Shown piece after piece: positions 3,099-42,160 of a stretch of DNA of 64,000 nucleotides. The notes beneath the pieces are model-generated. The model did no database searches and was not told the DNA's origin. It saw only the letters and a list, made by a program, of their open reading frames with translations. Every line of letters starts with the position of its first letter. Position 1 is the first letter of the stretch. Source of the stretch: Myxococcota bacterium (GTDB lineage Bacteria > Myxococcota_A > UBA9160 > SZUA-336); contig DATJZN010000056.1 in assembly GCA_035499075.1 (NCBI GenBank), positions 15,718 through 79,717 of the forward strand. The letters are read 5' to 3'. The position numbers and the translations under genes are program-made.

Positions 3099-5301
<2,203 letters not shown>

Positions 5302-5329
<28 letters not shown>

Positions 5330-12463: not shown

Positions 12464-12625
12464 TCTCGTACTCATTCCTTCGTTTGGTGGATTCGCTCGC
12501 GGGCGCACGTGCGCGCGCGAAGCGGGGCGCGGAGGTCGGCGCGGAAAACGCGCGCGAGCCCGCGGCTCGGAAAACTTCTCATCTCTTCCTGTTCGACCCG
12601 AACCCCAATCCAGGGGGAACCGGCT
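12464..12625 (-). promoter_or_regulatory. rpsO-pnp intergenic leader with GC-rich imperfect inverted repeats; a likely rpsO terminator or pnp regulatory hairpin
   Basis: A 160-nt spacer contains CGCGGGCGCACGTGCGCGCGCG...CGCGCGCGAGCCCGCGG complementary arms. The position is analogous to the RNase III-processed pnp leader of other bacteria. Confidence 0.4.
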
Positions 12626-12901
12626 TCAGCGGCGCAGCCCCAGCTTGTCGATCAAGCTCTGGTAGCGGCCCTGATCCGTCCGGTTCAAGTAGTCGAGCAG
12701 GCTGCGCCTTTGGCTGACGAGCTTCAGGAGCCCGCGGCGCGAGGAATGGTCCTTCACATGGACCTGGAGATGATTCGTGAGTTCCGTGATGCGCTCGGAC
12801 AGGAGCGCGATCTGAACCTCGCAGGAGCCCGTGTCGCCGGGTTTGCGCTGGTTCTCTTCGATGATCTCGTGCCGGCGATCGGCGCGCAGCATGCTCTTCA
12901 T
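12626..12901 (-). CDS. rpsO: 30S ribosomal protein S15
   Basis: 91 aa: ...[67 protein letters not shown], a canonical S15. Confidence 0.9.
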
Positions 12902-12985
12902 ACCTTCCGAATTCGGGACGCTGTATAGCAGAGGCCCCCGGAGAACCGCAATCGGGAAGGCGATCCTGTCGCACCTTGCGTCGGC

Positions 12986-21246: not shown

Positions 21247-21257
<11 letters not shown>
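20820..21257 (-). CDS. GNAT-family N-acetyltransferase (RimI-like)
   Basis: 145 aa with the acetyl-CoA motif ...RRRGLGRALLDAAL....GARNVSLEVRSGNAAALALYAACGF... Its start overlaps the 3' end of the response regulator gene. Confidence 0.75.
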
Positions 21258-22610
<1,353 letters not shown>

Positions 22611-22626
<16 letters not shown>

Positions 22627-24851: not shown

Positions 24852-24980
24852 CGCTAACGCAGGCGCGAATTTCCTTTCAACCTTTCCGCGCGCATGGCCT
24901 CGCCGTAAGACCGTGAAAAATCGCCGGTTTGGACGCGGTCCAGCGTCAAGAGTTACAGGGGGGATTCCGAAGAGGCCGGC

Positions 24981-27900
24981 ATGCAGCCGCGCCCGCGCAC
25001 GCCGTCCGTCCGCACGTCCCCGGAGCAGGCCGAGCGCATTCGGCGCTTGCTGCAGGGCTTCGCCACGAACCCGACCGACGCGCGCGCGTTCCGCACGCTC
25101 GAGGAGCACCTGTACCTCGAGGGGGCGTGGACGGAGCTCGCGAGCGTGTACGACTGCCGGCTCTCCGTGCTCGCGCCGACCAGCGCCGAGCGCGCCGAGG
25201 TGCTGTCGCGCGCGGCCGCGATCTACAGCGACCGCCTCGCCGACGTGGCACAGGCGCGCGCGCGCTACGAGGAGCTGCTGCGCATGCAGCCGCAGAACGC
25301 GGCCGCGCTGTCGAGCTTGCGGCGGCTGCTCGCGGCGGCGGGCGACGCGACGAGCGCGCTCCAGCTCGCGGAGGCCGAGGAGGCCCTGCCGCTGCCGCCG
25401 CGCGACCGCGCCCAGCTCTTCGCGGAGATCGGCCAGCTGTGGCGCGGCCTCGGCGACAAGGAAGAGGCGCGCCGCCGCTTCGAGGCCGCGCTCGAGCTCG
25501 ATCCCAAGTGCGACCCGGCGGTGCAGGGCGCGGCGCTGCTCGCCGAGGACGCCGGCGACCGCGCCCGCGCCCTCGCGCTGCACGAGAGCCGCCTGCCCGG
25601 GCTCACGGGCAACGTGCGCGCCGACGTGGTCGAGCGCATGGCGCGGCTCCTGCCGACCGAGGAGAGCGCGCGCCGCGCGGCGCTCCTGCGCGAGGTCGTG
25701 GCGAACCACCCCGAGCGGCGCGGCCCGCACGAGCGGCTGATCGAGATCGAGCGCGCGGCGCGGAACTACGCGGTCGTCGACGAGCTTCAGCGCGCGCTGT
25801 GGAAGCTCCTGCACGACCCCGTCGAGCGCGTCAGCCTGGCCAGCGGCGCGGCCGCGCTGCAGATGGACGAGGCGCAGAACGTCGAGTCCGCCGCGTACTG
25901 GGCCGAGCGCGCCGACGAGATCGCCTCCGACGACGCGGCCGTACAGAAGCTGCGCCTGCGCATCCACCGCAAGGCGGGCACGACGCGGGCGAGCCTCGAC
26001 GCGCTCGAGAAGCTGGCCGCGATCGAAGGCCACTCGCCCATGCGGCTGCTCGAGCTCGCCGTGCTGTACGAGCGCGAGGGCCAGTCGGCGCAGGCGATCG
26101 AGAAGCTCGAGCGCCTGCTCGCCCACGATGCCTACGACGCCGAGGCACTGGCGATCCTCGACCGCTGCCTGGCGCGCATGGGCCGCCACGCCGAGCGCGC
26201 CGAGGTGCTCGAGCGGCGCATGGCCGCCGCCGAGAGCAACGAGGACGCCGCCGACCTCATGGTCGAGCTCGGCGACCTGCACCTGCACGCGCTGGGCGAC
26301 GCCCGCAACGCCGAGGCCGCCTACCGCCGCGCGCTCGAGCAGGTGCCTGCGCACGCCGCGGGCGCCGCACAGCTGCGCGAGCTGTTGCGCTCGAGCGGCC
26401 GCGGCGGCGAGCTCTGTTCGCTCCTCGAAGGTCTGGCGCGCTCCGCACCGCAAGGGCGCGGGCGCGCGGCGCTCCTGTGCGAGCTGGCCCAGCTGCGGCT
26501 CGAGGCCGGCGCGCCGCCGGCCGAGGCGCACGCCGCGTACTCGGAGGCCCTGGAGTGCGACCCGAGCTGCGCGTCCGCGCTGGCGGGCATGCGCGAGCTC
26601 GCCGCGACCACCCGCGAGCCGCGGGCGCTGCTCGAGGTCGCCGAGCGCGAGCTCGCCCTCGAGCCGCCCGCCGAGCGCGCGGCCGCGCTCCTGGCCGACG
26701 TCGCGCAGGCTGCGCACGCGCTCGGCGAGCCCGAGCGGGCCCGCGCCGCCGCGCAGCGCTGGCTCGAGCTCGAGCCCTCGCCCGCCGCGCTGGGGCTCCT
26801 GGCCGAGCTCGCGCGCACCGACGGCGACTTCGCCGCGGAGGAGCGCTGGCTGGGCTCGCTCGAGGCCGTCGTCTCGGGCGCGGACCCGCGCGCCCACGCG
26901 CTCGTGTGCGTGCGCCTGGCCGAGCTCGCGCTCGCGAAGAGCGGGCCCGAGGCCGAGGCGGACGTGGAGCGCTGGTACCGCGCCGCGCGCGCGAGCGCGC
27001 CGACCGACGAGGCGCTCGGCGCGCGGCTCGTGGAGTTCTACCGCCGCACGCAGAAGCTGCCCGAGCTGGCGCGCGAGCTGCGCACACAGCTCGAAGCGGC
27101 CGGCGCCGCCGCGCCGCTCGCACAGGCGCTCGAGCTGGCGCGCACCCTGGCCGAGCTCGGCGACCTGGTGCAGGCGTCGGCCGTGCTGCAGCCGGCGTTC
27201 GAGCGCGAGCCCGAGTCCGTCGCCGCGGGCGACCTGCTCGAGAGCCTGCTCGCCGAACAGAACCGCATCGAAGAGCTGTGCGAGGTGCTCGCGCGGCGGC
27301 TGTCCCGCGAGCGCGACCCCGCGCGGCGGCGCGAGCTGGCGCACCGGCAGGCGGGCCTGCTGCTCGAAGGCCTGCGGCGCGCGCCCGACGCCATCGCCGT
27401 GCTGCGCGAGTTCGCCGACCCGACGCGCGACGGCCGGCTCGAGCACCTGTTCGCGCGCGCCCTCGAGGCCGGCGGCGAGACGCGGGAGCTCGAGAGCTGG
27501 CTCACCATGCGCGAGGGCCACGTCTCTGGGGCCGAGCGCACCGAGCTGCGCCTGCGTCTCGCCGCGCTGCTCGAGCGCGACGGCCGCGTCGCGGATGCGA
27601 TCGCTTGCCTGAAGCGCGCGCGCGACGGAGCCTCGAGCCCCGCGCTCGCCGCGACCGTGCGCGGCGCGCTGCTCGCGCTGCTGCGCGCGCACGGCACGGT
27701 CGATGACCAGCTCGCGTTCCTGGACGAAGGCATCCAGAGTGCGCCCGACGCGGAGGCGCGCGGCACGCTCCTCGTCGAGCGCGCGCGCATCTTCGCGGAA
27801 CGCGTGCGCGACCCGGCGCGCGCGCTCGCCGACTTGGAGCGCGCGCAGGCCGACGGCGCCCTGGGACCCGACGAGCTCCGACTCGTGGCCGAGCTCTCGG

Positions 27901-30900
27901 CCACGGCCGGCGCGCCCGAGCGCCAGGTGCACGCGCTGGAGCAGCTCGTCGAGACCGCGCGGGACCCCGAGACGCGGCGCGCGACGCGCCTCGAGCTGGC
28001 GCGCCTGTGGGCCGACGGTCCCGAAGCCGTGCGCGACGCCGCGCGCGGCGAAGAGATCTTGCGCGCACTGCTGCGCGAGAACGGCGCCGACGCCGACGCG
28101 TTCGACCGCTTGTCCGCGCTCTTCGAGCGGGCCGAGCGCGGCGTCGAGCTGCGCCGCTTGTTCGGCGAGCGCCTGGCCGAGAGCGCGCTGCGCCCCGGCG
28201 AGCGCGCGTCGCTGGCGCTGCGCCTGGCGCGCCTGCAGCTCGCGTCCGGCGACGCGCGCCAGGCCGTCGAGACGCTCGTCGGCGCGCGCGTCGGGGGCGA
28301 GACGCCGGACCCGGCCGTCGACGAGCTCCTGTACGGCGCGCTCGCACGCGCGGGGAACACCGGCGGCCAGATCAAGCTCGCGACCGAGCGCGCGCGCGGC
28401 GCGGCGGGTGCAGAGCGAGCGCGCTGGCTGCGGCGCTGGCTGACCGCGCTCGAAGCCGCGAGCCGGCCGGCGAGCGAGCGCTTGGAAGTCGTCGACGCGC
28501 TCTTCGCCGATGGCCCCGGCGACGCCGAGCTCCTGGCGCTGCGGCTGCCGCTCCTGCGCGAGGGCGCTCCGGCCGAGCGGCTCGCCGAAGGCCTCGAACG
28601 CGTGCTCGCGCGCGCCGACGCGGGCACGCCCGCCAGCCGGCGGCTGTGGGTGCGCGAGCTGCTGGCGCTGTACGAGGGTGCGCTCGAGCGGCCCGACCGC
28701 GCGCTCGCGCTCGTCGAGCGCGAGCTGGGCGCCGACTCCGGGCTGCGCGAGCCCGGCCTGCGCGCCGCGCGCGCGCTCGGCGACGAGTCGCGCGAGCTCG
28801 CGCTGCTGCGGCCGCTCGCCGGGGACGCCGGCCTCGCGCCCGCCGAGCTGCGCCGGCTCGGCCTGCTGCTCGCGCGCGCGGGCGAAGGCGACCTCGCCTA
28901 CACGATTCTGTGTCGCGCGCGGACCGCCGCGCCGCTCGACCGCGAAGTGCTCGAAGCGCTCGAGGCACTCGTGCGCGAATCGGGCGAAGACGGCGAGCTG
29001 CTCGGCGTGCTGTCCGCGCGCTTCGCGACCGAGGCCGGCGACGCGCGCCTGCGCGTGGCCCGCGACGCCGCCGCCGCGGCCGCGCGCGCGGGCGACGCGG
29101 CCGCCGAGCTGGCCTGGCTGCGCAAGCTCCACGCGCTGGCGCCGCTCGACCGCGAGGGCGCGTCGCGCTGGCTCGCGCTCGAGCGCCAGGCCGGTACGCC
29201 CGGCGGCCGGCTCGAGGCCGTGCGCGCGCGCGCCGCACTCGCGACCGAGCAGTCCGAGCGCGCCGAGCTCGCGGCGGCCGAAGGCGAGCTCCTCGCCGAC
29301 GGCGGCCAGCTCGCCGAGGCGAGCGCGTGCTACGCGCGCGCGCTGTCCGGCGCGCCGCGCGCGAAGCTGGCCTGGCTTCGCGCACAGAGCGAGCTGCTCC
29401 TGCGGCTCGGCCGCTCCGCCGAGCGCGTCGATCTGCTGCGCACGTTGGCGCGCCATCCCGAGGCGAGCGCCGACGAGCGGATGCGCTGGCAGCGCGAGCG
29501 CATCGAGCTGCTCGCCTCGCATCCCGAGCTCCGCGAAGAGGCCGCGCTCGAGCTGCGCATGTGGCTCGACTCCGACCCCGGCGCCTCGCGCGCAGCCCAG
29601 CTCGAGCGCATGCGCTCGCTGCTCGCGCTCTATGCCGAGCTCGGCCGCGACGCCGACTGGTGCGCCCTCGCGGAGCGCGCGCTGCCTCTCGCGCCCGACT
29701 CCGAGCGCGCCGAGCTCGAACGCCGCATCGCCGAGCGGCTCGGCACCTCCCTCGGCTCGACCGATCAGGCGATCTCGGCCTGGCAGCGCGTGCTCGCGCG
29801 CAACGCGAACGACCGGGACGCCCTCGCTGCGCTGGCCGGCCTGTTGCGCCGCCCCGGCGACGAGGCGCGCCGCGCGGACACGCTCGAGCGGCTGGCCGCG
29901 TCGGGCGCCGAGCACGCCGAATCACTCTGGCTCGCCGCCGCGCGCTTGCGCTGGCAGTCGCTCGGCGACGCGCCCGCCGCGCTCGTCGCGGTCGACCGCG
30001 CGCTCTCGCTCGCGCCGCGCCTCGACGGCGCGCACGACCTGCGCTCCGAGCTCTGCTCGCACCTCGACCGCCACGAGGACGAGGCCGCCTCGCTGCGCGC
30101 GCTGCTGGCGACCGACGCCGAGGGCCCGATGGCGGGCGACCGCTGGCTGCGGCTCGCCCAGCTCGTGGCCGCCCGGCGCGAGGGCTGGAGCGAGGCGATC
30201 GAAGCCGCCGAGCGGGCGCTGGCGACGGCGCCCGCCCAGACGTCCATGGTGCGCGAGGTGCGCCGCGTGTTCGAGCGGGCGAACGCCTGGGAGCGCGCAC
30301 GCGACCTGTTGCGGGAGGAGATCGGCGCGTCGACCGGCGAGGAGGCGCTCGGCCTGCACCGCCGGCTGGCGCGCATCGCCTGGGACGAGCTCTCCGACGA
30401 CGAGCTCGCCTGCAAGTCGCTCGCGGCGCTCGACGACGCGGAAGCGCTCCGCGGCGACGACCGCGAGCGCTACGCCGCTGCGCTCGCCGAGCAGGGGCGC
30501 TGGCGCGAGTCGCTCGACCAGCGCCACGCAGCGCTCCTCGAGTCGGGCGACCTCGCGACCGCGGCGCGCTGGCTCGAGCTGGCCCGCGACGCGCTCGCCA
30601 AGCTCGACGACCCGTCGCGCGCCCGCGAGGCCTGCGACCGCGCGCTCGAGCGCGAGCCAAAGCACCGCGACGCGCTGCAGCTGCGCACGCTCCTGCACGG
30701 CCGGCTGTGCGATCCGGCGCGCGAGTTCGGCGACGTGCTCCAGCTGGCCGAGCTCGAGTCCGACCCCTCGTCTGCGGCGGCGCTGTTCACACGCGCCGCC
30801 GAGATCGCGCGCGACCGGCTCGGCGATCCGCTGCGCGCCTGGGCGCTCTTCCGCACCGCGCTGAAGAAGGACGGCGCGCACCTGCCCGCCCTGCTCGGCG

Positions 30901-32741
30901 CCGGCCAGATCGCGCTCGAGCGCCACGAGTGGGCCGAGGCCGAGCGCGCCTTCGGGCTCGCGGCGTCGCTGTTGCGCGGGTCGCCCGACGAGGACAAGCT
31001 CGGCGGCGTGGCGCGCTCGGCGGCCTCGGCCGCGATCGCGCAGGAGCGCTTCGCCGAGGGCTTCCGCTACCTCGAGCTCGCGCTCGAACGCGAGCCCGCG
31101 CACCCCGAAGCGCTCGACGCGATGGCGGGCCTGGCCCTGCGGCTGGGCGCGCACGCGCGCGCGCGCGAGTGCCTCGAGACGCGGCTGCGCTCGCTCGAGC
31201 TCTCGCCCGAGGAGCGCGCCGACCGGCTCGTGAAGCTGGCGCAGGCGTGTGAGGGGCTCGCGCAGCTCGACCGCGCCGCGGCCGCGCTCGAAGAGGTGCT
31301 CTCGATCCGGCCGAGCGACGAGGTGTCACGCGCGCACGCCGTCGACCTGCTCGAGCGCCTCGGCGAAACCGAGCGCGCGGTGCTCCAGCTCGACGCCTGG
31401 AGCGAACACGTGCCGGCGGAGTTCGCGGCCCGCCTCGCGCTGCGCGCCGCGCAGCTCGAGCTCTCACAAGGCGACCGCGCGCACGCGCGCGAACGCCTCG
31501 AGGCGATCGTACAGGCACCGGCCGCGCCCGACGACGCGTGGGTGGCGCTGCTCGACCTGGTGCGCACCGACGACGGAGCGGCGGCCGGGCTCGATCTGGC
31601 GTCCGACGCGCTCGCCGCCGTGAAGGCGCCAAAGCCGCGCGCGGCGCTCTTGTGGACCGCGGCGTCGGCCTCGGCGTCGCTGGGCCAGAACGGCCCCGCG
31701 GCGCGCCGTGCGATGGAGGTGCTCACCTGCGACCCGGCGCACGTGGCGGCGGCGCGGATGCTCGCGGGCAACCTCGGCCACCTGGAGGATTGGGGCCAGG
31801 CGGTGAAGCTGCTCGAGCGCACGCTCGACAGCGCGCACCCCGAGCGCCCGGTCGAGGCCGAGCTCTGGGAGGCGGTGGGCCGGGCATACGCGGGTCCGCT
31901 CGAGGACATCGAGCGCGCGCAGCGCTGCTACCGCCGCGCGCTCGAGTGCAACCCGCTGCGCCAGAGCGCGCGCGAGGCGCTGGCGGACACGACTGCTTTC
32001 GATCCCGCGGCGCACCGCGAATCGGTCGAAGCGCACCGCGGCCTGCTCGAGCGACACCCGGGGCGGCGCAGCTCGTGGCGCTCGCTCGAGCGGATCGCCG
32101 CGCACTGGCGGCGCGACCGCGCGCAGACGACGTGCGTGGCCGTGCTGCAGGCGCTCGGGCCCGCGGGCGGCGCCACGCCGATCGAAGGCGCGCCGCTCGT
32201 CGACGTCGGCCCGCCGGCCGACTCGACGGTCGCGGCCGCGACCGAGCTCCTGCTCGCCGTCGGCGAGGCCGGCGCGCTGCCGGAGCCGAGCGAGCCGCGT
32301 CCCTACCCCGCGTTCGCGGGCGCGCTCGAAGAGGCGCTCGGCGCGCTCGTCGGCCCCGCATGGCGGCTCTCCGACGCCGCGCTGCGCGCGATCTGGAGCC
32401 AGCCGGGCGAGGACTCCACGCAGACGGGCGACGAAATCGGCCGGCGTGCGCGCCGCCGCCTGAAGCGCGCGCTGCGCAGCTTCGACACCGAGATGCTGCG
32501 CGTGCTCGCGCCCGACGTCTGGCGCGAGCAGGTGCTGGGCCAGGCCGCGGCGAAAGTGCTCGCGGCCGGAGGCATGGAGCTGCGCGACCTCTTGCTCGAG
32601 CTGCTCGCGGGCTGGCCCACGACGGCCCGGCTCGAGCTCCGCGCGAGCGGCGACGTGGCGTCGGCGGTCGCGCTCTGCCCGCCGGCGCGCGTGCTCTTGC
32701 TGCGCGTCGCGAGCGCCGTGATCGGAGCGCTGGGGCTCTAG
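24981..32741 (+). CDS. giant (2,586-aa) all-TPR-repeat protein, function unknown
   Basis: One uninterrupted 7,761-nt ORF with GC-rich third positions and an AAGAGG ribosome-binding site 7 nt upstream of its ATG. The product is A/L/R/E-rich, with 34-residue TPR-like signatures recurring from N- to C-terminus (AEAAYRRALEQVP, ALELDPKCDPA, ALEREPKHRDAL, ALECNPLRQSA...). There is no signal peptide or TM segment. Confidence 0.8.
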   Translation: MQPRPRTPSVRTSPEQAERIRRLLQGFATNPTDARAFRTLEEHLYLEGAWTELASVYDCRLSVLAPTSAERAEVLSRAAAIYSDRLADVAQARARYEELLRMQPQNAAALSSLRRLLAAAGDATSALQLAEAEEALPLPPRDRAQLFAEIGQLWRGLGDKEEARRRFEAALELDPKCDPAVQGAALLAEDAGDRARALALHESRLPGLTGNVRADVVERMARLLPTEESARRAALLREVVANHPERRGPHERLIEIERAARNYAVVDELQRALWKLLHDPVERVSLASGAAALQMDEAQNVESAAYWAERADEIASDDAAVQKLRLRIHRKAGTTRASLDALEKLAAIEGHSPMRLLELAVLYEREGQSAQAIEKLERLLAHDAYDAEALAILDRCLARMGRHAERAEVLERRMAAAESNEDAADLMVELGDLHLHALGDARNAEAAYRRALEQVPAHAAGAAQLRELLRSSGRGGELCSLLEGLARSAPQGRGRAALLCELAQLRLEAGAPPAEAHAAYSEALECDPSCASALAGMRELAATTREPRALLEVAERELALEPPAERAAALLADVAQAAHALGEPERARAAAQRWLELEPSPAALGLLAELARTDGDFAAEERWLGSLEAVVSGADPRAHALVCVRLAELALAKSGPEAEADVERWYRAARASAPTDEALGARLVEFYRRTQKLPELARELRTQLEAAGAAAPLAQALELARTLAELGDLVQASAVLQPAFEREPESVAAGDLLESLLAEQNRIEELCEVLARRLSRERDPARRRELAHRQAGLLLEGLRRAPDAIAVLREFADPTRDGRLEHLFARALEAGGETRELESWLTMREGHVSGAERTELRLRLAALLERDGRVADAIACLKRARDGASSPALAATVRGALLALLRAHGTVDDQLAFLDEGIQSAPDAEARGTLLVERARIFAERVRDPARALADLERAQADGALGPDELRLVAELSATAGAPERQVHALEQLVETARDPETRRATRLELARLWADGPEAVRDAARGEEILRALLRENGADADAFDRLSALFERAERGVELRRLFGERLAESALRPGERASLALRLARLQLASGDARQAVETLVGARVGGETPDPAVDELLYGALARAGNTGGQIKLATERARGAAGAERARWLRRWLTALEAASRPASERLEVVDALFADGPGDAELLALRLPLLREGAPAERLAEGLERVLARADAGTPASRRLWVRELLALYEGALERPDRALALVERELGADSGLREPGLRAARALGDESRELALLRPLAGDAGLAPAELRRLGLLLARAGEGDLAYTILCRARTAAPLDREVLEALEALVRESGEDGELLGVLSARFATEAGDARLRVARDAAAAAARAGDAAAELAWLRKLHALAPLDREGASRWLALERQAGTPGGRLEAVRARAALATEQSERAELAAAEGELLADGGQLAEASACYARALSGAPRAKLAWLRAQSELLLRLGRSAERVDLLRTLARHPEASADERMRWQRERIELLASHPELREEAALELRMWLDSDPGASRAAQLERMRSLLALYAELGRDADWCALAERALPLAPDSERAELERRIAERLGTSLGSTDQAISAWQRVLARNANDRDALAALAGLLRRPGDEARRADTLERLAASGAEHAESLWLAAARLRWQSLGDAPAALVAVDRALSLAPRLDGAHDLRSELCSHLDRHEDEAASLRALLATDAEGPMAGDRWLRLAQLVAARREGWSEAIEAAERALATAPAQTSMVREVRRVFERANAWERARDLLREEIGASTGEEALGLHRRLARIAWDELSDDELACKSLAALDDAEALRGDDRERYAAALAEQGRWRESLDQRHAALLESGDLATAARWLELARDALAKLDDPSRAREACDRALEREPKHRDALQLRTLLHGRLCDPAREFGDVLQLAELESDPSSAAALFTRAAEIARDRLGDPLRAWALFRTALKKDGAHLPALLGAGQIALERHEWAEAERAFGLAASLLRGSPDEDKLGGVARSAASAAIAQERFAEGFRYLELALEREPAHPEALDAMAGLALRLGAHARARECLETRLRSLELSPEERADRLVKLAQACEGLAQLDRAAAALEEVLSIRPSDEVSRAHAVDLLERLGETERAVLQLDAWSEHVPAEFAARLALRAAQLELSQGDRAHARERLEAIVQAPAAPDDAWVALLDLVRTDDGAAAGLDLASDALAAVKAPKPRAALLWTAASASASLGQNGPAARRAMEVLTCDPAHVAAARMLAGNLGHLEDWGQAVKLLERTLDSAHPERPVEAELWEAVGRAYAGPLEDIERAQRCYRRALECNPLRQSAREALADTTAFDPAAHRESVEAHRGLLERHPGRRSSWRSLERIAAHWRRDRAQTTCVAVLQALGPAGGATPIEGAPLVDVGPPADSTVAAATELLLAVGEAGALPEPSEPRPYPAFAGALEEALGALVGPAWRLSDAALRAIWSQPGEDSTQTGDEIGRRARRRLKRALRSFDTEMLRVLAPDVWREQVLGQAAAKVLAAGGMELRDLLLELLAGWPTTARLELRASGDVASAVALCPPARVLLLRVASAVIGALGL

Positions 32742-32754
32742 GCCGCGAGAGCGG

Positions 32755-33684
32755 TCAGCTGCGGGAGCGCGCGAGGGCCGGCTGCAGGACGCCGGCCTCG
32801 GGCGCGAGCTCGCGCTCGGCGCTCGGCGTCTCGAGCGTCCAGCAGGACGGGTTCGCGCGGATCTCCGCGACGAGCGCCTGGTGGAGCTGGTGGCCGCCGC
32901 GCACCGCCTTCACGTGGCCCTGCAGGGGCACGCCGAGCAGCGCGAGGTCGCCGACGAGGTCGAGCACCTTGTGGCGCGCGAACTCGTCGCGGAAGCGCAG
33001 GCCCTCGGGATTCAGCACGCGCGCGTCGTCGAGGACGATCGCGTTGGCGAGCGAGCCGCCGCGCGCGAGGCCGATGGCGCGGAGGCGCTGGGTATCCTTG
33101 AGGAAGCCGAACGTGCGCGCCGGCGCGATCTCGCGCGCGAACACCTCGGGGGTCAGCACGAGCGACTCGATCTGCTGCCGGCCGATGGCCGGGTGCGCGT
33201 AGTCGATCTCGACCGAGAGCTTCAACTCGCGCGAAGGGACGACCCGCACGTAGCGGTTGCCGTCGCGGACCTCGATCGGGCGGCGGATCACGAGGCGGCG
33301 GCGCATGCGGCCCTGCGCGCGGATGCCGGCCTGCTGAATCAGGTAGACGAACGCAGCGGCGCTGCCGTCCATGATCGGGACCTCGGGTCCCGAAACGCCG
33401 ACCGTGCAGTTGTCGATGCCCATGCCGCGCAGCGCGGAGACGAGGTGCTCGATCGTGGAGAGCCGCGCGTCCTCGTTGCCGAGCGTGGTGGCGAGCGTCG
33501 TGTCGATCACCCACTCGGCACGCGCCGGGAAGCGGACGGGGTGCTCGCCGTCATTGCGGACGAACAGGAGCCCCGTGCCGGCGGCGGCGGGCTTGAGCGA
33601 CAGCTCGACCGGCTCGCCTGTGTGGAGACCGATGCCGGTACACTGGACCGGCGACGCGATGGTTTGTTCTACGCCCCTCAGCAC
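32755..33684 (-). CDS. lpxC: UDP-3-O-acyl-N-acetylglucosamine deacetylase
   Basis: ...[21 protein letters not shown]...[13 protein letters not shown]...[26 protein letters not shown]..., LpxC zinc-binding motifs. Start chosen at the GTG at 33682-33684 (~309 aa). The 78 upstream codons of the track ORF have AT-rich third positions and are probably leader. Confidence 0.85.
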
Positions 33685-33963
33685 GGCTTGGCCCCGTTCC
33701 CCAGATGCAAGCTTGCCAGAAGCACTCGCCGTTGCTGCGGTCCCAACGCCATGAGCTGTGATCCCCCCCACGCGCGTCCGAGCTTGAGCAACCTGCGTGC
33801 CAGCTGCCTCTCCTACCGAATGAAATCGGAAGAAATCGCGAAGTTCTGGATTCATCTTGTGATTTGGCGCACATCGGCCGCAAGGGCGCCGGGGTGGCTC
33901 CCCCGCGTGCGCCGGCAACCGGCCCGGTCAGAGTGACGTTTCGATTACGCCGTGATGAGATGA
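33685..33963 (-). promoter_or_regulatory. atypical ~280-nt low-GC leader / promoter region upstream of lpxC
   Basis: The segment ...ccgaatgaaatcggaagaaatcgcgaagttctggattcatcttgtgatttggcgcacatcg... has much lower GC than its flanks. Its open frame uses AAT, CCA, GAA, CTT, GAT and TTT codons that this genome otherwise avoids. Confidence 0.35.
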
Positions 33964-36585
33964 TCACGAGCCCGGGGTGGGCGCGGCGGCGCGACCGCTC
34001 ACCCGGTCGAGCTCGTCCAGGAGGTCCTTGGCCGACTGGAAGCGGTCGGCCGGGGACTTCTGGAGGCAGCGCAGGATCAGCTTGGCCAGGCCCTCGGGGA
34101 GGTCGGCCTTGATGCTGCGCGGATCGGGCGGGGGCGTGTGCACGTGGTGGTACGGCACGTTGCCCTTCTGGAAGGGCAGCTCGCCGGTAGCCAGCTCGAA
34201 GAGCGTGACGCCCAGCGAGTAGATGTCGGTCCGGTGGTCGACGTCGCGACCCAGGGTCTGCTCGGGCGACATGTAGAAGGGCGTGCCCGAGATCATGGTC
34301 GTCGCGTTGCGCACCTCTTCCATGAGCTTCGCGAGGCCGAAGTCCATGATCTTCACGTGCTTCTCAGTCGTCCACATCGTGTTGGCGGTCTTGATGTCGC
34401 GGTGCACGACCTTGCGGCCGTGCGCGTACGCGAGCGCCGACGCCATCTGGCGCAGGATGTAGCTGGCCGCGTTCGCGGAGACGGCGCCGCGCTGGCGCAG
34501 GATTTCCTTCAGGGTCGTGCCCTCGACGAGCTCCATGGCCATGTAGAAGCCGTGCTCCGACTCGCCGGCGTCGTAGACGGTGACGATGTTCGGGTGGTTG
34601 AGCTGCGCCGCGGCCTTCGCCTCGCGCAGGAAGTTCTTCAGCGCGTTCGGATTGCCCCGCAGGCCCTCGGGTAGCACCTTGTACGCCACCTCGCGCTCGA
34701 GCACGGAGTCGCGCGCGAGATACACGACGCCCATGCCGCCGCGGCCCAGCTCGCGCACGATCTCGTAGCGCTTCTGCGTCGTCGGAATCTGCGTCGGGAC
34801 CGTCTGCGGCGGCGCCGTGTCGCCCGCCGGCTTCTTGCCGAGCTGCGCCTTGGTGCGCTCGAGGCACTCGCCCACGTCGCGATAGTGGTAGTCGAACGAG
34901 AGGATGCGCTCGTAGATGTCGACGGCGCCCGCGATGTCGCCCTTGCGCTCGTTCGCGCGCGCGAGCTCGTAGAACGCCTCGACGTTCGACTTGGTGAGCT
35001 GGTCCGAGCCCGCCGCCTCTTCGAATTTCTTGACGGAGAGGCTGTGCATGCCCTTGGCCTGGAACATGCGGCCCAGGATTGAGCAGGCCTCGCCGTAGCG
35101 GGCGTCGCCGGCGGGAATCTGCTGCAGCAGGCGGATCGCAGGATCGGTCTCGTTGAGCTCGGCGTAGAGCTTGCCCGCTTCGAAGGCACTGCCCGCCTTC
35201 TCGAGCATCTCGGCCTGCTTGTCCTTCTTGCCGACCTGGCCGTAGCAGATCGCGGCGTCGGCGAACTTCGCGCACGACGCGTACGCGTCGGCCGCGGGCT
35301 CGAGCTCCCCCGCCGCGCGGTACGCCTCGGCCGCGGCCGGGAAGTCCTGGGCGTTCGCGTACGCCGCGCCGGCCTCGGCGAAGCGGCCGAGCTTGCGGAA
35401 CAGATCGCCCGCCGCCGCGTGCTCGCCGGCCTTCACGAGGAACTCGACGGCCTCGGCGTCCTGGCCCTTGTCGCGCAGGAACTCGCCCTGCAGCCGCGCG
35501 GCGCCGACTTCGTCCCCCAGGCGTTCGAGCGCCTTGGCCGCGAGGTCGCCGCGGCGCACGCGCAGGAACAGCTCCGCCGCGCGTTTGTAGTTGCCCGTCT
35601 GGAACGCGACCTTCGCCGCCGGCCCGAACGACTCGGAGCGCACGAAGATGTTCTCGGCCTCTTCGAAGCGCTCGAGCTTCACCAGGATCTCGCCGGCCTT
35701 CTTGGCGATGCCGCGCATCTCCTTGGCCTTCTGGTCGCTCTTCGCGCCGGCCGTGCCGCCCTCCTCGTTGAACGCGTTGATGAGCGCCTCGGCCGCCTGC
35801 GCGTCGGCACCGGCCTTCAAGTAGGCCTGCGCGGCGTGGCGGTGGAAGCCGATCTTCTCGTAGCACTTGCCCGCCTCGCGGAAGTTCTCGGCGCGCTCGA
35901 ACATCTCTCCGGCGACCGAGAACTTGCCCGCAGCGAAGTAGCACTGCGCGGCCTCATCGTGGCGCTCGAGCTGCGCGAAGATCTTCCCGGCCTGCTCTTC
36001 CTTGCCGACCTTCTTGTAGAGCTCCGCCGCCTCGTCGAAGCGGTTCTGGTCGTAGCGGACCTCGGCGGCGCGCGCGAAGAGCTCGGCGTCCAGGAACAGG
36101 TCCGCCGCCTCGTCCTTCATGTTGTGGCCGAGCAGGTACTCGCCCGCCGCCTCGGCGCCCTTCTCCTCGCGGAGCTCCTCCGCCTTCTTGAGGTGCTTCT
36201 TGCCCTCTTTGCCCGACGGCGCGGCGACGGCCTCTTCCTCGGCCGCGTGCGCGCCCTTCTTGGCCTTCGCGGCCTCCGGCGCGGCCGCGGCGTCCTTCTT
36301 GGCGCCTTTGGCCGGCGCCGCCGACTTCCTCTTCCTCTTCCCGCCTCCGCCCGCGAGCGCGAACAGCACGAGCACGGCGGCGGCGCCGGCGACGTAGTGG
36401 GCGTCGGCGCGCAGGGTCTCGAGCTGAGCCATGACCGCCTTGCTGGCGGGCCCTGCCTTCGAGGCCTGCAGCTTCGCCTGCACCATCGCGGAGTCGCCCC
36501 CGTGCTGGAGCCACTCCCCCGCACCCCCGAGCAGGAGCAAGGGGATGGCCAGGAGAAACGCGAGAATCCGCAGGGCCGTGCGCAC
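33964..36585 (-). CDS. membrane-anchored Ser/Thr protein kinase with N-terminal TPR/Sel1-like repeat region and a C-terminal Hanks kinase domain
   Basis: Kinase motifs sit at the C-terminus: [27 protein letters not shown]. An N-terminal signal-anchor ([20 protein letters not shown]) is followed by about 560 aa of 19/38-aa A-, K- and E-rich repeats (...[37 protein letters not shown]...). The start is uncertain: GTG at 36583-36585, or ATG at 36484-36486. Confidence 0.8.
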
Positions 36586-36652
36586 GAGCTTAGAAATCGA
36601 CCAGACGCCCTCTCTATTTGAGCGCCTGGCGCGAGTGACTCGTGTGTCTCGC

Positions 36653-37699
36653 CTAGAGCAGCTTGTCCTGGCGGCCCGGAGTGCCCGCGCGCGGCGTGGC
36701 CCCGAAGTGCCGGTACGCACGCTCCGTGGCGACGCGCCCGCGCGGCGTGCGGTCCAGGTAGCCCTCCTGGATCAGGAACGGCTCGTAGATGTCTTCGATG
36801 GTGCCGCGGTCCTCGCCGATCGCCGCGGCGAGCGTGTCCAGGCCGACGGGTCCGCCGCCGTACTTCTCGATCAGCGCGCGCAGGAGCTGGCGGTCCATGC
36901 GGTCGAAGCCCGCTTCGTCGACGTCGAGCCGGCCGAGCGCGAAGCGCGCGAGCTCGCCCGTGATCTCGCGCGCCCCGTCGACTTCGGCGAAGTCGCGCAC
37001 GCGCCGCAGCAAACGGTTCGCGACGCGCGGCGTGCCGCGCGAGCGGCCGGCGATCTCGTTCGCGCCCGCGGCGTCGAGCGCGAGGCCGAGGATGCGCGCG
37101 CTCCGCGCGAGGATCTTCACGAGGTCGCTCGCCGGGTAGTAGTCGAGACGCGCGATCACGCCGAAGCGGTCGCGCAGGGGCGACGTGAGCAGCCCGGCGC
37201 GCGTGGTCGCGCCGATCAGCGTGAAGCGCGGCAGGTCGATCTTCACCGTCTGCGCGCTCGGACCCTGCCCGATCACGAGGTCGAGCTTCCCGTCCTCCAT
37301 CGCGGGATAGAGGATCTCCTCGACGGCGGGTGCGAGCCGGTGGATCTCGTCGATGAACAGCACGCCGCCGGGCTCGAGGTTGGTGAGGATCGCCGCCAGG
37401 TCGCCCGCGCGCTCGATCACCGGCCCCGCGGTCACGCGGAGCGGCGCGCCCATCTCGCGCGCGATGACGTGCGCGAGCGCCGTCTTGCCCAGGCCGGGCG
37501 GCCCGTAGAACAGGGCGTGGTCGAGCGGCTCGCCGCGGTCGCGCGCCGCGCGGATGAACACGCGCAGGTTCTCGCGCAGCGCGTCCTGCCCGACGAACTC
37601 GTCGAGCGAGCTCGGGCGCAGCTTCTCGTCGACGCCGCGTTCGAGCTCGAGCGAGTCGCCGCGCAGCGGCTCGGCGCGGCGTTCATCCGCTCGCGGCAC
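36653..37699 (-). CDS. ruvB: Holliday junction branch migration ATPase RuvB
   Basis: ...[51 protein letters not shown]..., a AAA+ ATPase with a C-terminal winged helix. Confidence 0.95.
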
Positions 37700-39685: not shown

Positions 39686-41608
39686 ATGAGCAAGGACGTC
39701 ACGATCGGCATCGACCTCGGCACGAGCAACTCGTGCGTGTGCGCGATGCTCGACGGCAAGCCGACCGTGCTCGCCAACAAGAAGGGCGAGCGCGTGATCG
39801 CGTCCGTCGTGGCCTTCCACGACGGCGGGAAGATCGAGGTCGGCAACGCGGCGAAGCAGCGCATCATCCTCGACCCCAAGCACACGGTGTCGTCGGCCAA
39901 GCGCCTGATCGGCCGCTACTTCTTCAGCGAGGAAGTCCGCAAGGCGCGCGCGGTCTGCAAGTACGAGATCGTCCCGGGCGAGAACCACGGCGTCCGCATC
40001 AAGATCCGCGAGGAGGAGTTCTCGCTGCCCGAGATCTCCGCGTTCGTGCTGAAGGAGATGAAGGCGATCGCCGAGGGCGCGCTCGGCCAACCCGTCTCGG
40101 GCGCGGTGATCACGGTTCCCGCGTACTTCAACGACAACCAGCGCCAGGCGACGAAAGACGCGGGGCGCATCGCCGGCCTCGACGTGCTGCGCATCCTGAA
40201 CGAGCCCACCGCCGCGGCGCTCTCGTACGGCTACGGCAAGGAGCTGCGCCAGAAGGTCGCCATCTACGACCTCGGCGGCGGCACGTTCGACGTCTCGATC
40301 CTCGAGATCGGCAAGGACGTGTTCGAGGTGCTCGCGACGTCGGGCGACACGTACCTCGGCGGCGACGACTTCGACGACCGCGTGATCGACCTGCTCGCCG
40401 ACCGCGTGCAGTCCGAGCACGGCGTGAACGTGCGCACCGACCCCTACGCGTTCGCCAAGCTGCGCATGGCGGCCGAGACCGCGAAGATCGAGCTGGCCGA
40501 GCACGAAGAGGCCAAGATCTCGATCCCCGACCTCGCCGAGCACGAAGGCAAGCAGATCGCGATCGAGTACACGCTCACGCGGAAGGAGTTCGACAAGCTC
40601 GTCCGCGACCTGATCCTGCGCACCTTCAAGGTGTGCGACGAGGCGCTGCAGCAGGCGAGCCTGACCACGCGCGACCTGAACGGCGTGATCCTCGTCGGCG
40701 GTCCGACGCGCCTGCCCTCGATCCGCAACGCGGTGCGCGACTACTTCCAGCGCGAGCCCGAGACCGACATCAACCCCGACGAGGTCGTCGCGATCGGCGC
40801 CGCGATCCACGCGGCCTCGCTCGCCTCGCCCGAGGCGGGCAGCTACCTGCTCGACGTCACGCCGCTGACGCTGCGCATGGGCATCGCGGGCGGGCTCAGC
40901 GAGCCGATCATCGAGCGCAACAGCCCCGTACCCATCGACCACACGCGGGTGTTCACGACGGTGCGCGACCGCCAGGAGGCCATCGCGGTGCGCATCTTCC
41001 AGGGCGAGTCGCGCCAGGCCGAGGGCAACACGCTGCTCGGCGAGTTCGAGTTCTCCGGCTTCGCACCCGGCCCGCGCGGCGAGGTGAAGATCGAGGTCAC
41101 GTTCTCGATCAACACCGAAGGCATCGTCAAGGTGCAGGCGCGCGACCCGAAGACGGGCGCCGAGGCGTCGACCACGGTGTCGATGTCGAGCGGCCTGTCG
41201 GAAGAGCAGATCCAGGCGATCATCGCGAAGGACCGCGCGTCCGACGTCGCCCCGAACTCCGCGCCCGCTCCGGCGGGCGGCCGCAAGGCCAAGGGCAAGG
41301 CCGACAACGCGCCGCTGCCGGTCGTCGAGCTCGAAGAGGTCGAGGACGGCCTGCTCGACATGCCGGCGCTCGAAGCCGACGTGCAGGAGCTCGCCGAGAA
41401 GCCCGACGCGGAGCAGCCGCTGTTCGGCAAGGTCGAGGGCGATCTCGGCGGCGAGGCGCAGGAGCCCATCCGCCCGGCCGGCGAGAGCAGCTTCGGCGGC
41501 GGCGATCCGTCGGAGCGCACGTTCGGCGGCGAATCGAACGAGATCGAGCTGCAAGAGGCCGACGTCGAGCCCGATGGCGACGACGACAAGGTCCTCGGCG
41601 ACGACTGA
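39686..41608 (+). CDS. Hsp70-family chaperone (atypical DnaK paralogue; HscA/HscC-like, acidic C-terminal tail, no EEVD)
   Basis: IGIDLGTSNSCV..., DLGGGTFDVSILE, ...VILVGGPTRLPSIRNAV...: actin-like ATPase motifs plus a substrate-binding beta-sandwich. The C-terminal ~120 aa are G/E/D-rich low complexity. Confidence 0.9.
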   Translation: MSKDVTIGIDLGTSNSCVCAMLDGKPTVLANKKGERVIASVVAFHDGGKIEVGNAAKQRIILDPKHTVSSAKRLIGRYFFSEEVRKARAVCKYEIVPGENHGVRIKIREEEFSLPEISAFVLKEMKAIAEGALGQPVSGAVITVPAYFNDNQRQATKDAGRIAGLDVLRILNEPTAAALSYGYGKELRQKVAIYDLGGGTFDVSILEIGKDVFEVLATSGDTYLGGDDFDDRVIDLLADRVQSEHGVNVRTDPYAFAKLRMAAETAKIELAEHEEAKISIPDLAEHEGKQIAIEYTLTRKEFDKLVRDLILRTFKVCDEALQQASLTTRDLNGVILVGGPTRLPSIRNAVRDYFQREPETDINPDEVVAIGAAIHAASLASPEAGSYLLDVTPLTLRMGIAGGLSEPIIERNSPVPIDHTRVFTTVRDRQEAIAVRIFQGESRQAEGNTLLGEFEFSGFAPGPRGEVKIEVTFSINTEGIVKVQARDPKTGAEASTTVSMSSGLSEEQIQAIIAKDRASDVAPNSAPAPAGGRKAKGKADNAPLPVVELEEVEDGLLDMPALEADVQELAEKPDAEQPLFGKVEGDLGGEAQEPIRPAGESSFGGGDPSERTFGGESNEIELQEADVEPDGDDDKVLGDD

Positions 41609-41617
41609 GCGCACAGC

Positions 41618-42160
41618 ATGGGCGAAACGGACCAGAGCCTGCAGGAGATCAAGGCGCTCGCGCGGGTCATCGACCGCGTCGACTACTACCGGCTGTTGAA
41701 GCTCGACCCGCGCGCGGATTCCGACGCCGTGCGCAGTGCGTACCACGACGCGCGCCGCCGCTTCCATCCCGACGCCTTCCTCGCGCAGCCCGACGACGTG
41801 CGCGACGCCGTGGACCGCATCGCGCGCCGCATCACCGAGGGCTACCTCGTGCTGCGCGACCGCACGCGCCGCGCGGCCTACGACTCCGCGCTGTCGACGG
41901 GCCAGATGCGCTACAACCCCGAGCTCGAGCAGGAGAAGCGCACCGAGGCCGAAGCCGCGCGCGGCTCCACGCCCAACGGCAAGCGCTACTTCGGCCTGCA
42001 CCAGGAAGCGGAGCGCGCGGGCGACATCGTCAAGTCGCACGCGCACCTCAAGACGGCGCTCACGTTCGAGCCGAAGAACGCGGCGTTCCGCACGAAGCTC
42101 GACGCGCTCGAAGCGCAGCTCAAGGCGGCGCGCAAGAAGGCGAAGAACCCGGGCGTTTGA
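41618..42160 (+). CDS. J-domain protein (DnaJ-like co-chaperone lacking the Zn-finger and C-terminal domains)
   Basis: DYYRLLKLDPRADSDAVRSAYHDARRRFHPDA is a J-domain with the HPD motif. It sits 9 nt downstream of the Hsp70 gene. 180 aa. Confidence 0.8.
   Translation: MGETDQSLQEIKALARVIDRVDYYRLLKLDPRADSDAVRSAYHDARRRFHPDAFLAQPDDVRDAVDRIARRITEGYLVLRDRTRRAAYDSALSTGQMRYNPELEQEKRTEAEAARGSTPNGKRYFGLHQEAERAGDIVKSHAHLKTALTFEPKNAAFRTKLDALEAQLKAARKKAKNPGV

Follow-up and report, generated by a model that had tools for sequence, protein, structure and literature searches.

A gene in the window analysed here, a 64,000-nucleotide stretch of a Myxococcota contig, encodes an 873-aa protein with the predicted layout of a membrane-tethered repeat-scaffold Ser/Thr kinase (33964..36585, minus strand; defined by the ORF list, the sequence, an identical gene call, P0001, and homologues). 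Its anatomy, conservation and domain order are established, and we consider it probable that the product is a PknB-like kinase which a hairpin keeps on the inside of the cytoplasmic membrane and which is equipped with a cytoplasmic scaffold arm. We see the protein as an atypical form of a signalling enzyme that is widespread in bacteria, and not as a new type of system. Its family is large, uncharacterised and comes from uncultured Myxococcota. For its pathway, the conserved core-genome neighbourhood is the one pointer, and it hints loosely at cell-envelope or lipopolysaccharide (LPS) homeostasis.

In the mechanism that we propose, a two-helix membrane hairpin with an N-in/C-in orientation would serve mainly as an anchor, followed by a flexible 40-residue tether, a rigid cytoplasmic solenoid (~460 aa), a 22-residue S/T/P-rich linker and, last, the catalytic domain. 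The solenoid may act as a docking platform that brings partners or substrates to the membrane, with a near-invariant polar patch, RAAEVRHDQNRF (residues 172-183; columns R172 to F183), as the best candidate binding site. Once activated by autophosphorylation at T762/T763, the tethered kinase would phosphorylate proteins held on the scaffold.

A PknB-like kinase domain at the C-terminus

The earlier note had placed a Hanks-type kinase with full catalytic signatures at the C-terminus, and the domain prediction it proposed bears this out, with Pfam returning both Pkinase and TPR models above their gathering scores. The catalytic domain, as delimited by Pfam, Foldseek and invariant motifs, occupies residues 606-863 (33997..34770, minus strand). 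Pkinase (PF00069) matches residues 607-854 with an E-value of 4.7e-56 and 190.5 bits (cut-off 31.7), and every named motif is present: GRGGMG at 614, VAYK at 633 (with K636), E655, HRDIKTAN at 728, DFG at 748 and SPE at 773. Across an alignment of 75 homologues, with overall identity down to 44%, G614-G619, K636, E655, H728-D730, K732, N735, F749 and S773-E775 are invariant, and D748 and G750 are nearly so. The AF2 model has the bilobal kinase fold and comes closest, by Foldseek, to 1o6y, the kinase domain of M. tuberculosis PknB (E 1.6e-18, 40% identity; target-normalised TM-score 0.84, rmsd 3.7 Å).

The HRD arginine (R729) is present, which makes this an RD kinase. Two activation-loop threonines (34297..34302, minus strand) are conserved in the same 75 homologues, T763 invariantly and T762 nearly so, and by analogy with PknB both are likely autophosphorylation sites. 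The Pfam match, the fold and the invariant catalytic residues together argue for an active PknB-like Ser/Thr kinase. With a whole-model pTM of 0.51, inter-domain packing is uncertain and autoinhibition by the solenoid is not inferable. A role in a defence system was considered and rejected, because the NCBIfam matches in question (MADS6, BREX PglW and lanthipeptide synthetase) lie far below their cut-offs and cover the kinase region only, and because the gene sits in a housekeeping setting with nusA, infB, pnp and pyrD nearby.

A solenoid of 13-residue helical units

Ahead of the kinase lies a structured repeat region of ~460 aa (residues 125-582) with disordered linkers on either side (~80-124 and 583-605). 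Of the ~560 aa of TPR/Sel1-like repeats described in the earlier note, the long TPR-like helical array stands; the length does not, nor does the Sel1 assignment, as the Pfam Sel1 model gave no match at E <= 1 and the period is 13 instead of 36-44 residues. A 19/38-residue repeat had also been read from the sequence. Autocorrelation over residues 141-490, compared with 500 shuffles, replaces it with a period of 13 (z = 10.5, 10.0 and 8.2 at lags 13, 26 and 39), with no signal at 19, 34 or 38 residues (z = 1.4, -1.9 and -1.1); the value at lag 34 also means that this stretch lacks the 34-residue TPR periodicity.

Autocorrelation, in-register units and the AF2 model delimit an alpha-solenoid of ~24 such units at residues 125-487 (35125..36213, minus strand). 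The unit consensus is [A/L/V]-G-x-[F/H]-x-E-A-[A/G]-x-x-[Y/F/L]-x-x, and the array has a single insertion, at residues 275-306. In the model, each unit is a 10-residue helix and a 3-residue turn (pLDDT 95-98; solenoid mean 92.9). No dedicated Pfam or NCBIfam model for a 13-residue helix unit was matched.

The array ends in two to three canonical TPR-like hairpins at residues 497-582 (34840..35097, minus strand), recognised from Pfam TPR models, profile matches and AF2 helices of 12-14 residues, and closed by a conserved FDYHYxDV motif. Helices of TPR length are confined to these last hairpins, and the best stretch for TPR_2, TPR_6 and TPR_14 lies at residues 536-565. The Pfam gathering scores were passed marginally (TPR_7, 29.8 vs 27.9; TPR_2, 28.6 vs 27; TPR_6, 27.7 vs 26.3), and profile positions 347-464 match consensus TPR proteins, OGT and SPINDLY. 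The modelled fold is an antiparallel helix-hairpin solenoid whose top 50 Foldseek matches are nearly all TPR or TPR-like (APC/C subunits, OGT, SPINDLY and IFT-A), with E-values of ~1e-8 and query-normalised TM-scores of at most 0.36. Between solenoid and kinase runs an S/T/P-rich disordered linker (residues 583-605; 34771..34839, minus strand; pLDDT <50 at 585-603). Across the 75 homologues it measures ~22 aa and contains 10% Thr, against 3.3% for the whole protein, and it is a possible autophosphorylation or docking segment.

Conserved neighbourhood and candidate pathways

Directly downstream of the kinase gene lies lpxC (32755-33684, minus strand), which in turn adjoins a convergent gene for a giant TPR protein of 2586 aa (24981-32741, plus strand). 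Homology between this giant protein and the solenoid was considered and rejected, as it showed neither an HMM match nor a 13-residue period. The placement of the kinase beside lpxC and the giant TPR gene, pointed out in the earlier note, has been kept in lineages whose kinase identity is 37-59%, and a block of DnaJ-Hsp70, YebC-RuvC-RuvA-RuvB-kinase-LpxC and the giant TPR gene recurs in five other lineages (L002-4, L005, L006, L085 and L087). Such conserved synteny may be plain vertical inheritance. Within the flanks fetched for the Acidobacteriota homologues (L007 and L022), none of the neighbour genes of the window were found. An NtrY-like/sigma-54 two-component pair follows downstream in the locus.

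The lpxC gene has its own conserved sigma-54 promoter with upstream palindromes, and it probably does not share a transcript with the kinase gene. A search of 33500-36800 gave no sigma-70-like promoter, the ruvB-kinase and kinase-lpxC gaps contain none of the four terminator-like matches, Rfam gave no RNA family within the window, and neither an FHA protein nor a PP2C phosphatase was present among the neighbours scanned.

These neighbours suggest a specific version of our main explanation, not contrary to it, in which the protein is a LapB-like controller of LPS synthesis. The arm would bind LpxC, the membrane helices perhaps FtsH, the kinase would replace the LapB rubredoxin, and phosphorylation would set LpxC activity or stability. 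In LapB, the membrane helix binds FtsH and the TPRs bind LpxC (PMC12444477), and the order of anchor, cytoplasmic TPR-like array and C-terminal effector seen here is a parallel layout. The repeat profile also matches LapB chains (E 3.6e-7 to 8e-5), but no better than it matches dozens of unrelated TPR proteins, and these matches fall on the canonical-TPR tail; a rubredoxin domain match is missing. That lpxC directly follows the kinase gene, here and in five other lineages, fits this proposal as well, although adjacency by itself counts for little, lpxC has a promoter of its own, and it is not adjacent in the 41%-identity homologue L086 or in L007 and L022. The NtrY-like kinase and sigma-54 activator at the same locus also count in its favour, since in two alphaproteobacteria NtrYX reportedly controls the transcription of lpxC (PMC12444477). 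Our literature search found no paper tying a Ser/Thr kinase to LpxC. On balance, we regard a LapB-like role as doubtful. Slightly more doubtful is the fuller scheme in which the kinase, as a LapB-like scaffold, sets LpxC activity by phosphorylation instead of or besides targeting it to FtsH, while the NtrY-like kinase and sigma-54 activator drive lpxC from the sigma-54 promoter.

The genes on the other side of the kinase point elsewhere, to a partnership with the RuvABC Holliday-junction machinery or with YebC, through which recombination or repair might, for example, be linked with the cell cycle or with the membrane. ruvCAB is the most widely conserved neighbour of the kinase. In the window, YebC-RuvC-RuvA-RuvB precedes the kinase gene on its own strand, with a gap of 67 nt that lacks a terminator-like site, so that co-transcription with ruvB is possible; the arrangement is also found in L002-6, L085, L087 and even L086. 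One gene call, P0149, combines RuvB domains with a match to part of the repeat region of the kinase protein. The yebC-ruvCAB cluster is, however, widely conserved as a unit of its own; in L002, L005, L006 and L086, ruvB and the kinase gene lie 0.8-2 kb apart or have other genes between them, and a membrane anchor would be odd for a regulator of DNA repair. We therefore consider this partnership improbable and retain the scaffold kinase, loosely linked to the envelope, as the preferred explanation.

Membrane hairpin and predicted topology

Hydropathy analysis identifies two hydrophobic segments, at residues 1-26 and 61-82, followed by a KRKRK stop-transfer motif at residue 83, so the signal-anchor helix, second hydrophobic segment and basic motif listed in the earlier note were all recovered. 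The first predicted helix, TM1 (residues ~7-25; 36511..36567, minus strand), follows a short R-rich N-tail, has a mean Kyte-Doolittle value above 2, is conserved and is modelled as a helix with pLDDT 85-90. Charge, conservation and AF2 helices at 30-43 and 46-77 define a short, predicted helical extracytoplasmic loop (residues ~26-63; 36397..36510, minus strand), which among the 75 homologues is conserved in length (~44 aa) but poorly in sequence, with no invariant columns. TM2 (residues ~64-82; 36340..36396, minus strand) is supported by hydropathy and by conservation across homologues. From KRKRK onwards, a K/A/E/P-rich disordered tether spans residues 83-124 (36214..36339, minus strand; pLDDT <50 at 80-117).

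The charge distribution is asymmetric. Net charge per residue across the 75 homologues is +0.19 in the N-tail and +0.17 after TM2, against +0.016 in the loop, and the 15 residues after TM2 contain on average 4.0 K/R across homologues. Hydropathy reveals no hydrophobic segment between residue 83 and the kinase. Because of the positive-inside rule and because no membrane segment separates repeats from kinase, the 790-aa C-terminal part, comprising both, is placed in the cytoplasm with good support from hydropathy and charge counts, leaving ~38 residues outside. An alternative for TM1 is a signal peptide that is cleaved off; repeats and kinase would then still lie inside. That a kinase domain needs cytoplasmic ATP is established knowledge, and PMC11032199 argues likewise.

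These predictions bear on the inverted domain order described in the earlier note: read as an "inverted PknB", it would imply that the repeats are a sensor across the membrane from the kinase. For a true receptor kinase of inverted order, an external repeat array would sense a ligand and a membrane segment would precede the cytoplasmic kinase. Sensor-membrane-kinase orders do exist in our background sample: L079 (labelled Elusimicrobia) has N-terminal TPR-like sequence, a hydrophobic segment and then the kinase, and in L009, L027 and L080 a C-terminal kinase is preceded by a large N-terminal region and membrane segments. In the present protein, the repeats come after both membrane segments, the distribution of charge assigns the side after TM2 to the interior, the stretch from residue 83 to the kinase is free of hydrophobic segments, and a kinase beside an external array would have no ATP. 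The topology check returned a cytoplasmic kinase with the repeats on the same side; an inverted receptor is already contradicted by these sequence features, and we give it very little probability. A membrane-tethered scaffold kinase is the well-supported reading.

Gene integrity and domain order across the family

The gene is real and intact, confirming the original sequence observation. It is one unbroken ORF from a GTG at 36585 to a stop codon at 33964-33966, and no in-frame ATG, GTG or TTG was found between the ruvB stop (36653) and 36585. Both the GTG start and the single-gene status are supported by over 200 full-length homologues (850-900 aa), many with ATG at the equivalent residue; TM1 is kept in nearly all full-length homologues, which removes the downstream ATG, with TM1 untranslated, that the earlier note had named as a possible refutation. 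Its other concern, a frameshift joining two genes, fails too, as the lone apparently split copy examined (L087) comes from an assembly with broken YebC, RuvA and TPR genes. Kinase-less relatives were likewise rejected as a real sub-architecture, since P0125 stems from a frameshifted assembly and most others end at the solenoid end. An artefact, whether a wrong start codon, frameshift-joined repeat and kinase genes or a dead pseudokinase, is already contradicted and has next to no probability, because, although no Shine-Dalgarno sequence was found near the GTG and some database entries hold repeats without a kinase, TM1 and its start position are conserved, the 873-aa call P0001 on an independent JGI contig is identical, the kinase-less entries are mostly fragments and the catalytic residues are all invariant or nearly so.

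A word-index search with the repeat region alone gave 45 matches, probably owing to low query complexity, and an exhaustive profile search was used instead. It delineated a family of at least 544 clusters at 50% identity (E <= 1e-30). Among the best 150 representatives of these 544 clusters, all 125 kinase-bearing members have the solenoid before the kinase and none the reverse, so the homologue search proposed in the earlier note turned up the same architecture in each of these 125, and the order of repeats then kinase is not an artefact.

For comparison, we drew on a scan of 185,579 species genomes with TP[FY]YMSPE and [LI]GRGGMG[VI]V, which are generic kinase motifs; among the matches listed, the family members were only L005, L006, L007 and L022, and the other 76 loci were reused as background. 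Among those listed matches, 67 of 80 loci have the kinase within 150 aa of the N-terminus, and just 8 of 80 have it at the C-terminus, 4 of these 8 being from the same family. The kinase-last order is, as had been claimed, unlike that of most bacterial kinases. No match list contained a homologue from a characterised protein or a cultured organism, source names in these lists read only "protein kinase" or "TPR repeat protein", and our literature search found no paper on an anchor-solenoid-kinase architecture.

Implications

The usual reading of bacterial Hanks kinases puts the kinase at the N-terminus and a sensor after it, and the anchor-scaffold-kinase family falls outside this reading. It occupies a conserved core-genome position in many Myxococcota-labelled metagenome genomes, and its scaffold unit of 13 residues is unusually short. 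A family model with the corrected topology would improve on the present generic annotations. The biological value hangs on the unproven envelope/LPS link. LpxC regulation is understood mainly from work on E. coli, and a real link would add a phosphorylation-based mechanism to it: a previously undescribed Ser/Thr-phosphorylation route regulating lipid A synthesis, at an envelope-control locus in uncultured Myxococcota.

Relation to known kinases and scaffolds

With PknB of M. tuberculosis and Stk1 of S. aureus, the protein shares the catalytic domain, the RD type, the activation-loop threonines, the full set of motifs, membrane binding and a cytoplasmic kinase. It differs in that the kinase is C-terminal, the external loop measures only ~38 aa, the accessory array is cytoplasmic and PASTA domains are lacking: Pfam detected none in the 873 aa, and the NCBIfam model PknB_PASTA_kin (NF033483) reached 318.6 bits against a cut-off of 450, over profile positions 6-270 of 563, the kinase part only.

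Like the TPR-array Ser/Thr kinases of myxobacteria and planctomycetes, the protein joins a Hanks kinase to a long array of TPR type, and it does so in a phylum rich in kinases (PMC11032199). In Sorangium cellulosum, 26% of kinases were reported to have C-terminal TPRs, and in planctomycete membrane kinases the TPR array follows the kinase and is mostly predicted to be periplasmic (PMC11032199). The array described here, in contrast, precedes the kinase, consists of 13-residue units and is predicted to be cytoplasmic.

PknG of Mycobacterium and Corynebacterium is soluble, with a rubredoxin-like N-terminal domain and the TPR after the kinase. As in our protein, its kinase and TPR are both cytoplasmic, whereas the membrane anchor, the reversed order and the far longer array set the present family apart. 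The PknG TPR is thought to mediate protein contacts (PMC11032199).

LapB (YciM) of E. coli is analogous in layout, with an N-terminal anchor, a cytoplasmic TPR array and a C-terminal effector, and it too has a connection to LpxC, which is physical for LapB (PMC12444477) and here one of genomic adjacency only. Two membrane helices against one, a kinase in place of rubredoxin and a sequence match amounting to generic TPR similarity are the differences.

Outside bacteria, the 13-mer profile matches the IFT-A proteins (IFT144/WDR19, IFT121/WDR35, IFT122 and IFT140), the clathrin leg and alpha-SNAP (E 8e-9 to 1e-3), and IFT-A chains give the highest query-normalised Foldseek TM-scores for the solenoid (0.32-0.36, at an rmsd of 14-16 Å). 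The corresponding Pfam models stay below their gathering scores (Clathrin, 23.7 vs 29.6; TPR_IFT122, 19.4 vs 75; TPR_WDR35, 14.5 vs 27; TPR_GEMI5, 23.1 vs 33), the SNAP match to the kinase protein is also sub-threshold, and the AF2 model contains only helices and disordered linkers, and no beta-propeller, between the membrane hairpin and the kinase. The resemblance to IFT-A and clathrin probably reflects a shared helix-hairpin geometry, not specific ancestry.

Gene model and kinase domain

In the list of open reading frames of the window, the kinase is encoded by a single frame on the minus strand (36720 to 33964), in which the GTG at 36585 is the earliest possible start downstream of the end of ruvB (36653) and gives a protein of 873 aa. 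An independent JGI metagenome contig carries an identical 873-aa gene call (P0001, locus L001). The G+C content of the window is ~72%. Two homologue searches, the first returning proteins with 45–81% identity to the window protein, yielded more than 200 full-length homologues of 850–900 aa. In nearly all of them the N-terminus has the same two hydrophobic segments and then an Arg/Lys cluster, and many have an ATG start at the residue corresponding to the window's GTG, which contradicts the wrong start that the earlier note had considered. Its second concern, two genes joined by a frameshift, is contradicted by the apparently kinase-less homologues. One of these, P0125 (locus L087), comes from a broken assembly that also splits YebC, RuvA and the TPR gene; downstream of P0125 lies a kinase fragment. 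Of the 150 best family representatives, 25 have no kinase; most of these stop just a few residues from where the repeat region ends and therefore look like truncated gene calls. Read-through or a frameshift at the ruvB–kinase junction of one contig is suggested by a 502-aa database gene call (P0149) that has RuvB domains and aligns to 17% of the repeat-region query with 79% identity.

Pfam places the protein kinase domain at residues 607–854 (E = 4.7e-56), and every motif listed from the sequence was found (KRKRK at 83, GRGGMG at 614, VAYK at 633, HRDIKTAN at 728, DFG at 748 and SPE at 773). The closest solved structure is the kinase domain of M. tuberculosis PknB (40% identity, E = 1.6e-18, TM-score 0.84). 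Across 75 homologues, the catalytic residues, the HRD arginine R729 and the activation-loop residues T762 and T763 are invariant or nearly so; by analogy with PknB, we infer an RD kinase that would be switched on by activation-loop autophosphorylation. The linker ahead of the domain (~22 aa) contains 10% Thr, compared with 3.3% for the whole protein. Seven family members of ~980–1200 aa (P0279, P0295, P0305, P0339, P0345, P0364 and P0382) show a post-solenoid kinase-profile match spanning ~500–590 residues, suggesting two tandem kinase domains, one perhaps a pseudokinase.

A predicted short-unit solenoid on a membrane tether

An AlphaFold2 model built from the 75-sequence alignment (mean pLDDT 87.7) comprises a helical membrane hairpin (residues 2–77), a tether (about 80–124; pLDDT <50 at 80–117), uninterrupted helices (125–582; pLDDT 95–98), a second linker (about 583–605; pLDDT <50 at 585–603) and the kinase fold (607–863); modelled alone, the repeat region reached a pLDDT of 92.9. 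Autocorrelation of this region peaked at lags of 13, 26 and 39 (z = 10.5, 10.0 and 8.2 against 500 shuffles), with no signal at lags 19, 34 or 38 against the same shuffles. Each unit consists of a helix of 10 residues and a turn of 3, with the consensus [A/L/V]-G-x-[F/H]-x-E-A-[A/G]-x-x-[Y/F/L]-x-x; 23 of the 24 units have Ala at position 7. A canonical TPR match is confined to the last 2–3 hairpins (residues 497–582), which have longer helices, and no Pfam Sel1 model matched the protein. For the 13-mer part, Pfam matches to the Clathrin, IFT122, WDR35, GEMI5 and SNAP models were all sub-threshold, profile matches to IFT-A subunits, alpha-SNAP and LapB were modest, and Foldseek with the repeat region returned generic TPR solenoids at TM-scores ≤0.36. 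The region is therefore best described, from sequence and model, as a predicted TPR-like, short-unit variant without a close solved relative. The earlier observation as a whole is confirmed, its 19/38-residue period giving way to 13 residues and its repeat length of ~560 aa to residues 125–582; of the TPR/Sel1 likeness, the TPR half holds, with canonical TPR matches in the last hairpins only.

The protein has only two hydrophobic segments, both ahead of the repeats. In the 75 homologues, K/R frequency and net charge per residue are 0.25 and +0.19 in the N-tail, 0.13 and +0.016 in the loop of about 44 aa, and 0.27 and +0.17 in the 15 residues after TM2. The positive-inside rule predicts a cytoplasmic location for the N-terminus and for all residues beyond TM2. 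Protein kinases need ATP, which fits a cytoplasmic kinase domain. The extracytoplasmic loop lacks any invariant column in the alignment and so probably belongs to an anchor rather than acting as a specific sensor. We rejected the repeats as an external sensor: both membrane segments precede them, and the charge puts the post-TM2 side inside. Of the earlier interpretation, the C-terminal Hanks-type kinase after TPR-like repeats stands, whereas reading the protein as an "inverted PknB" is misleading, since hydropathy and charge counts predict repeats and kinase alike to be cytoplasmic. The predicted picture is of a cytoplasmic scaffold that is tethered to the membrane and ends in a kinase.

Domain order and family distribution

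Among 80 background kinase loci, listed by a poorly targeted genome scan, the kinase domain lies within 150 aa of the N-terminus in 67 and is C-terminal in 8, so the C-terminal order is a minority, though not unprecedented. Four of these eight belong to the window kinase's family; the others (L009, L027, L079 and L080) have big N-terminal regions and membrane segments in sensor–TM–kinase order. In published surveys, TPR arrays follow the kinase in Sorangium and planctomycetes, and are mostly periplasmic in planctomycete membrane kinases (PMC11032199). Used as the profile in an exhaustive search, the repeat region gave 544 clusters (50% identity) at E ≤ 1e-30; in the best 150, repeats precede the kinase in 125 and the reverse order never occurs. 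Nearly all taxon-labelled matches are Myxococcota, "Deltaproteobacteria" or unclassified-bacterium metagenome genomes, and the labels of family matches include neither a cultured-species name nor a characterised protein. Two genomes labelled Acidobacteriota (L007 and L022) carry relatives with an identity of about 30%.

A conserved neighbourhood and a putative lpxC promoter

In the window, lpxC (32755–33684) is followed, in order of coordinates, by the kinase, ruvB, ruvA, ruvC and yebC, all on the minus strand. A giant TPR gene (24981–32741, plus; 2586 aa, A/L/R/E-rich) converges with lpxC, and the region at 39686–42160 (plus), divergent from yebC, encodes a DnaK-like Hsp70 of 640 aa and a small protein of 180 aa with a DnaJ domain. 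Further out lie nusA, infB, pnp and genes for dihydroorotate dehydrogenase, thiolase and aldehyde dehydrogenase; the locus is core genome. The noted proximity of the kinase to lpxC and the giant TPR gene recurs: the block DnaJ-Hsp70 | YebC-RuvCAB-kinase-LpxC | giant TPR was found in five other lineages (kinase identity 37–59%), with the Hsp70–DnaJ pair in the same position in all five. Locus L086 (41% kinase identity) retains ruvCAB upstream and lacks the adjacent lpxC. Two loci with the full Myxococcota-type block, L005 (CAZUYC010000013.1) and L006 (JACKFD010000001.1), are labelled Spirochaetales and Spirochaetaceae; these labels look wrong, and "MYXO" is part of the name of one isolate.

The giant TPR protein is conserved in position (the L085 copy is 45.6% identical over its full length), is split over two or more gene calls in L085 and L087, and has no clear membrane segment. 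As a homologue of the 13-mer solenoid it was rejected, with neither a solenoid-profile match nor a 13-residue period. In L007 (labelled Thermoanaerobaculia, 32% identity), the genes around the kinase encode a protein with TPR and cyclic-nucleotide-binding parts (4626–5693, plus), an exosortase-like protein and a sigma-54 activator with an FHA domain (11604–13430, minus). FHA domains bind phosphothreonine, so the kinase of that lineage could plausibly target this activator. A weak repeat-region match, P0153, also has a cNMP-binding domain.

The kinase stop and lpxC are 280 bp apart, and this gap contains TGGCACGCAGGTTGCT (33787–33802, minus), the sole perfect sigma-54 −24/−12 consensus (TGGCAY-N5-TTGCW) in the 64-kb window (0.02 expected by chance); ~103 nt separate it from the downstream GTG start of lpxC. 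About 130–165 nt further upstream are two tandem GTRAY-N6-RTCAC palindromes (33933–33948 and 33952–33967, minus), the second overlapping the kinase stop codon. Four lineages have both site and palindromes conserved ahead of lpxC (besides the window: L085, 11620–11801; L002–L004, 12619–12797; L087, 11615–11792); L005 and L006 have shorter gaps without either. Divergent from the giant TPR gene is a pair comprising an NtrY-like histidine kinase (22611–24932, minus; HAMP-PAS-HisKA-HATPase_c) and a sigma-54 response regulator with GAFTGA and Walker A motifs (21247–22617, minus). A similar pair occupies the same place in L002 and L003, as does at least the histidine kinase in L087. lpxC thus appears to have a sigma-54 promoter, and the conserved elements, together with the nearby GAFTGA-bearing activator, suggest sigma-54-dependent transcription, with the pair as candidate activator. 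NtrYX reportedly controls lpxC transcription in two alphaproteobacteria (PMC12444477); we found no description of sigma-54-dependent lpxC in the literature.

Proposed mechanism and comparison with LapB

In the best-supported arrangement, the scaffold kinase would sit on the cytoplasmic side of the membrane, where its solenoid would dock partners for phosphorylation by the tethered kinase; among candidate binding sites, the near-invariant RAAEVRHDQNRF patch ranks first. As for the pathway, the surrounding genes hint at control of the envelope or of LPS. That the kinase exerts such control in a LapB-like manner, acting on LpxC, would agree with its layout and the adjoining lpxC, but we consider it improbable: the similarity of solenoid and LapB sequences is generic, lpxC has its own predicted promoter, and the kinase–lpxC adjacency is lost in more distant relatives. 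The parallel is nevertheless suggestive: LapB binds FtsH through a membrane helix and LpxC through cytosolic TPRs (PMC12444477), and the scaffold kinase would likewise join a membrane tether to a TPR-like solenoid.
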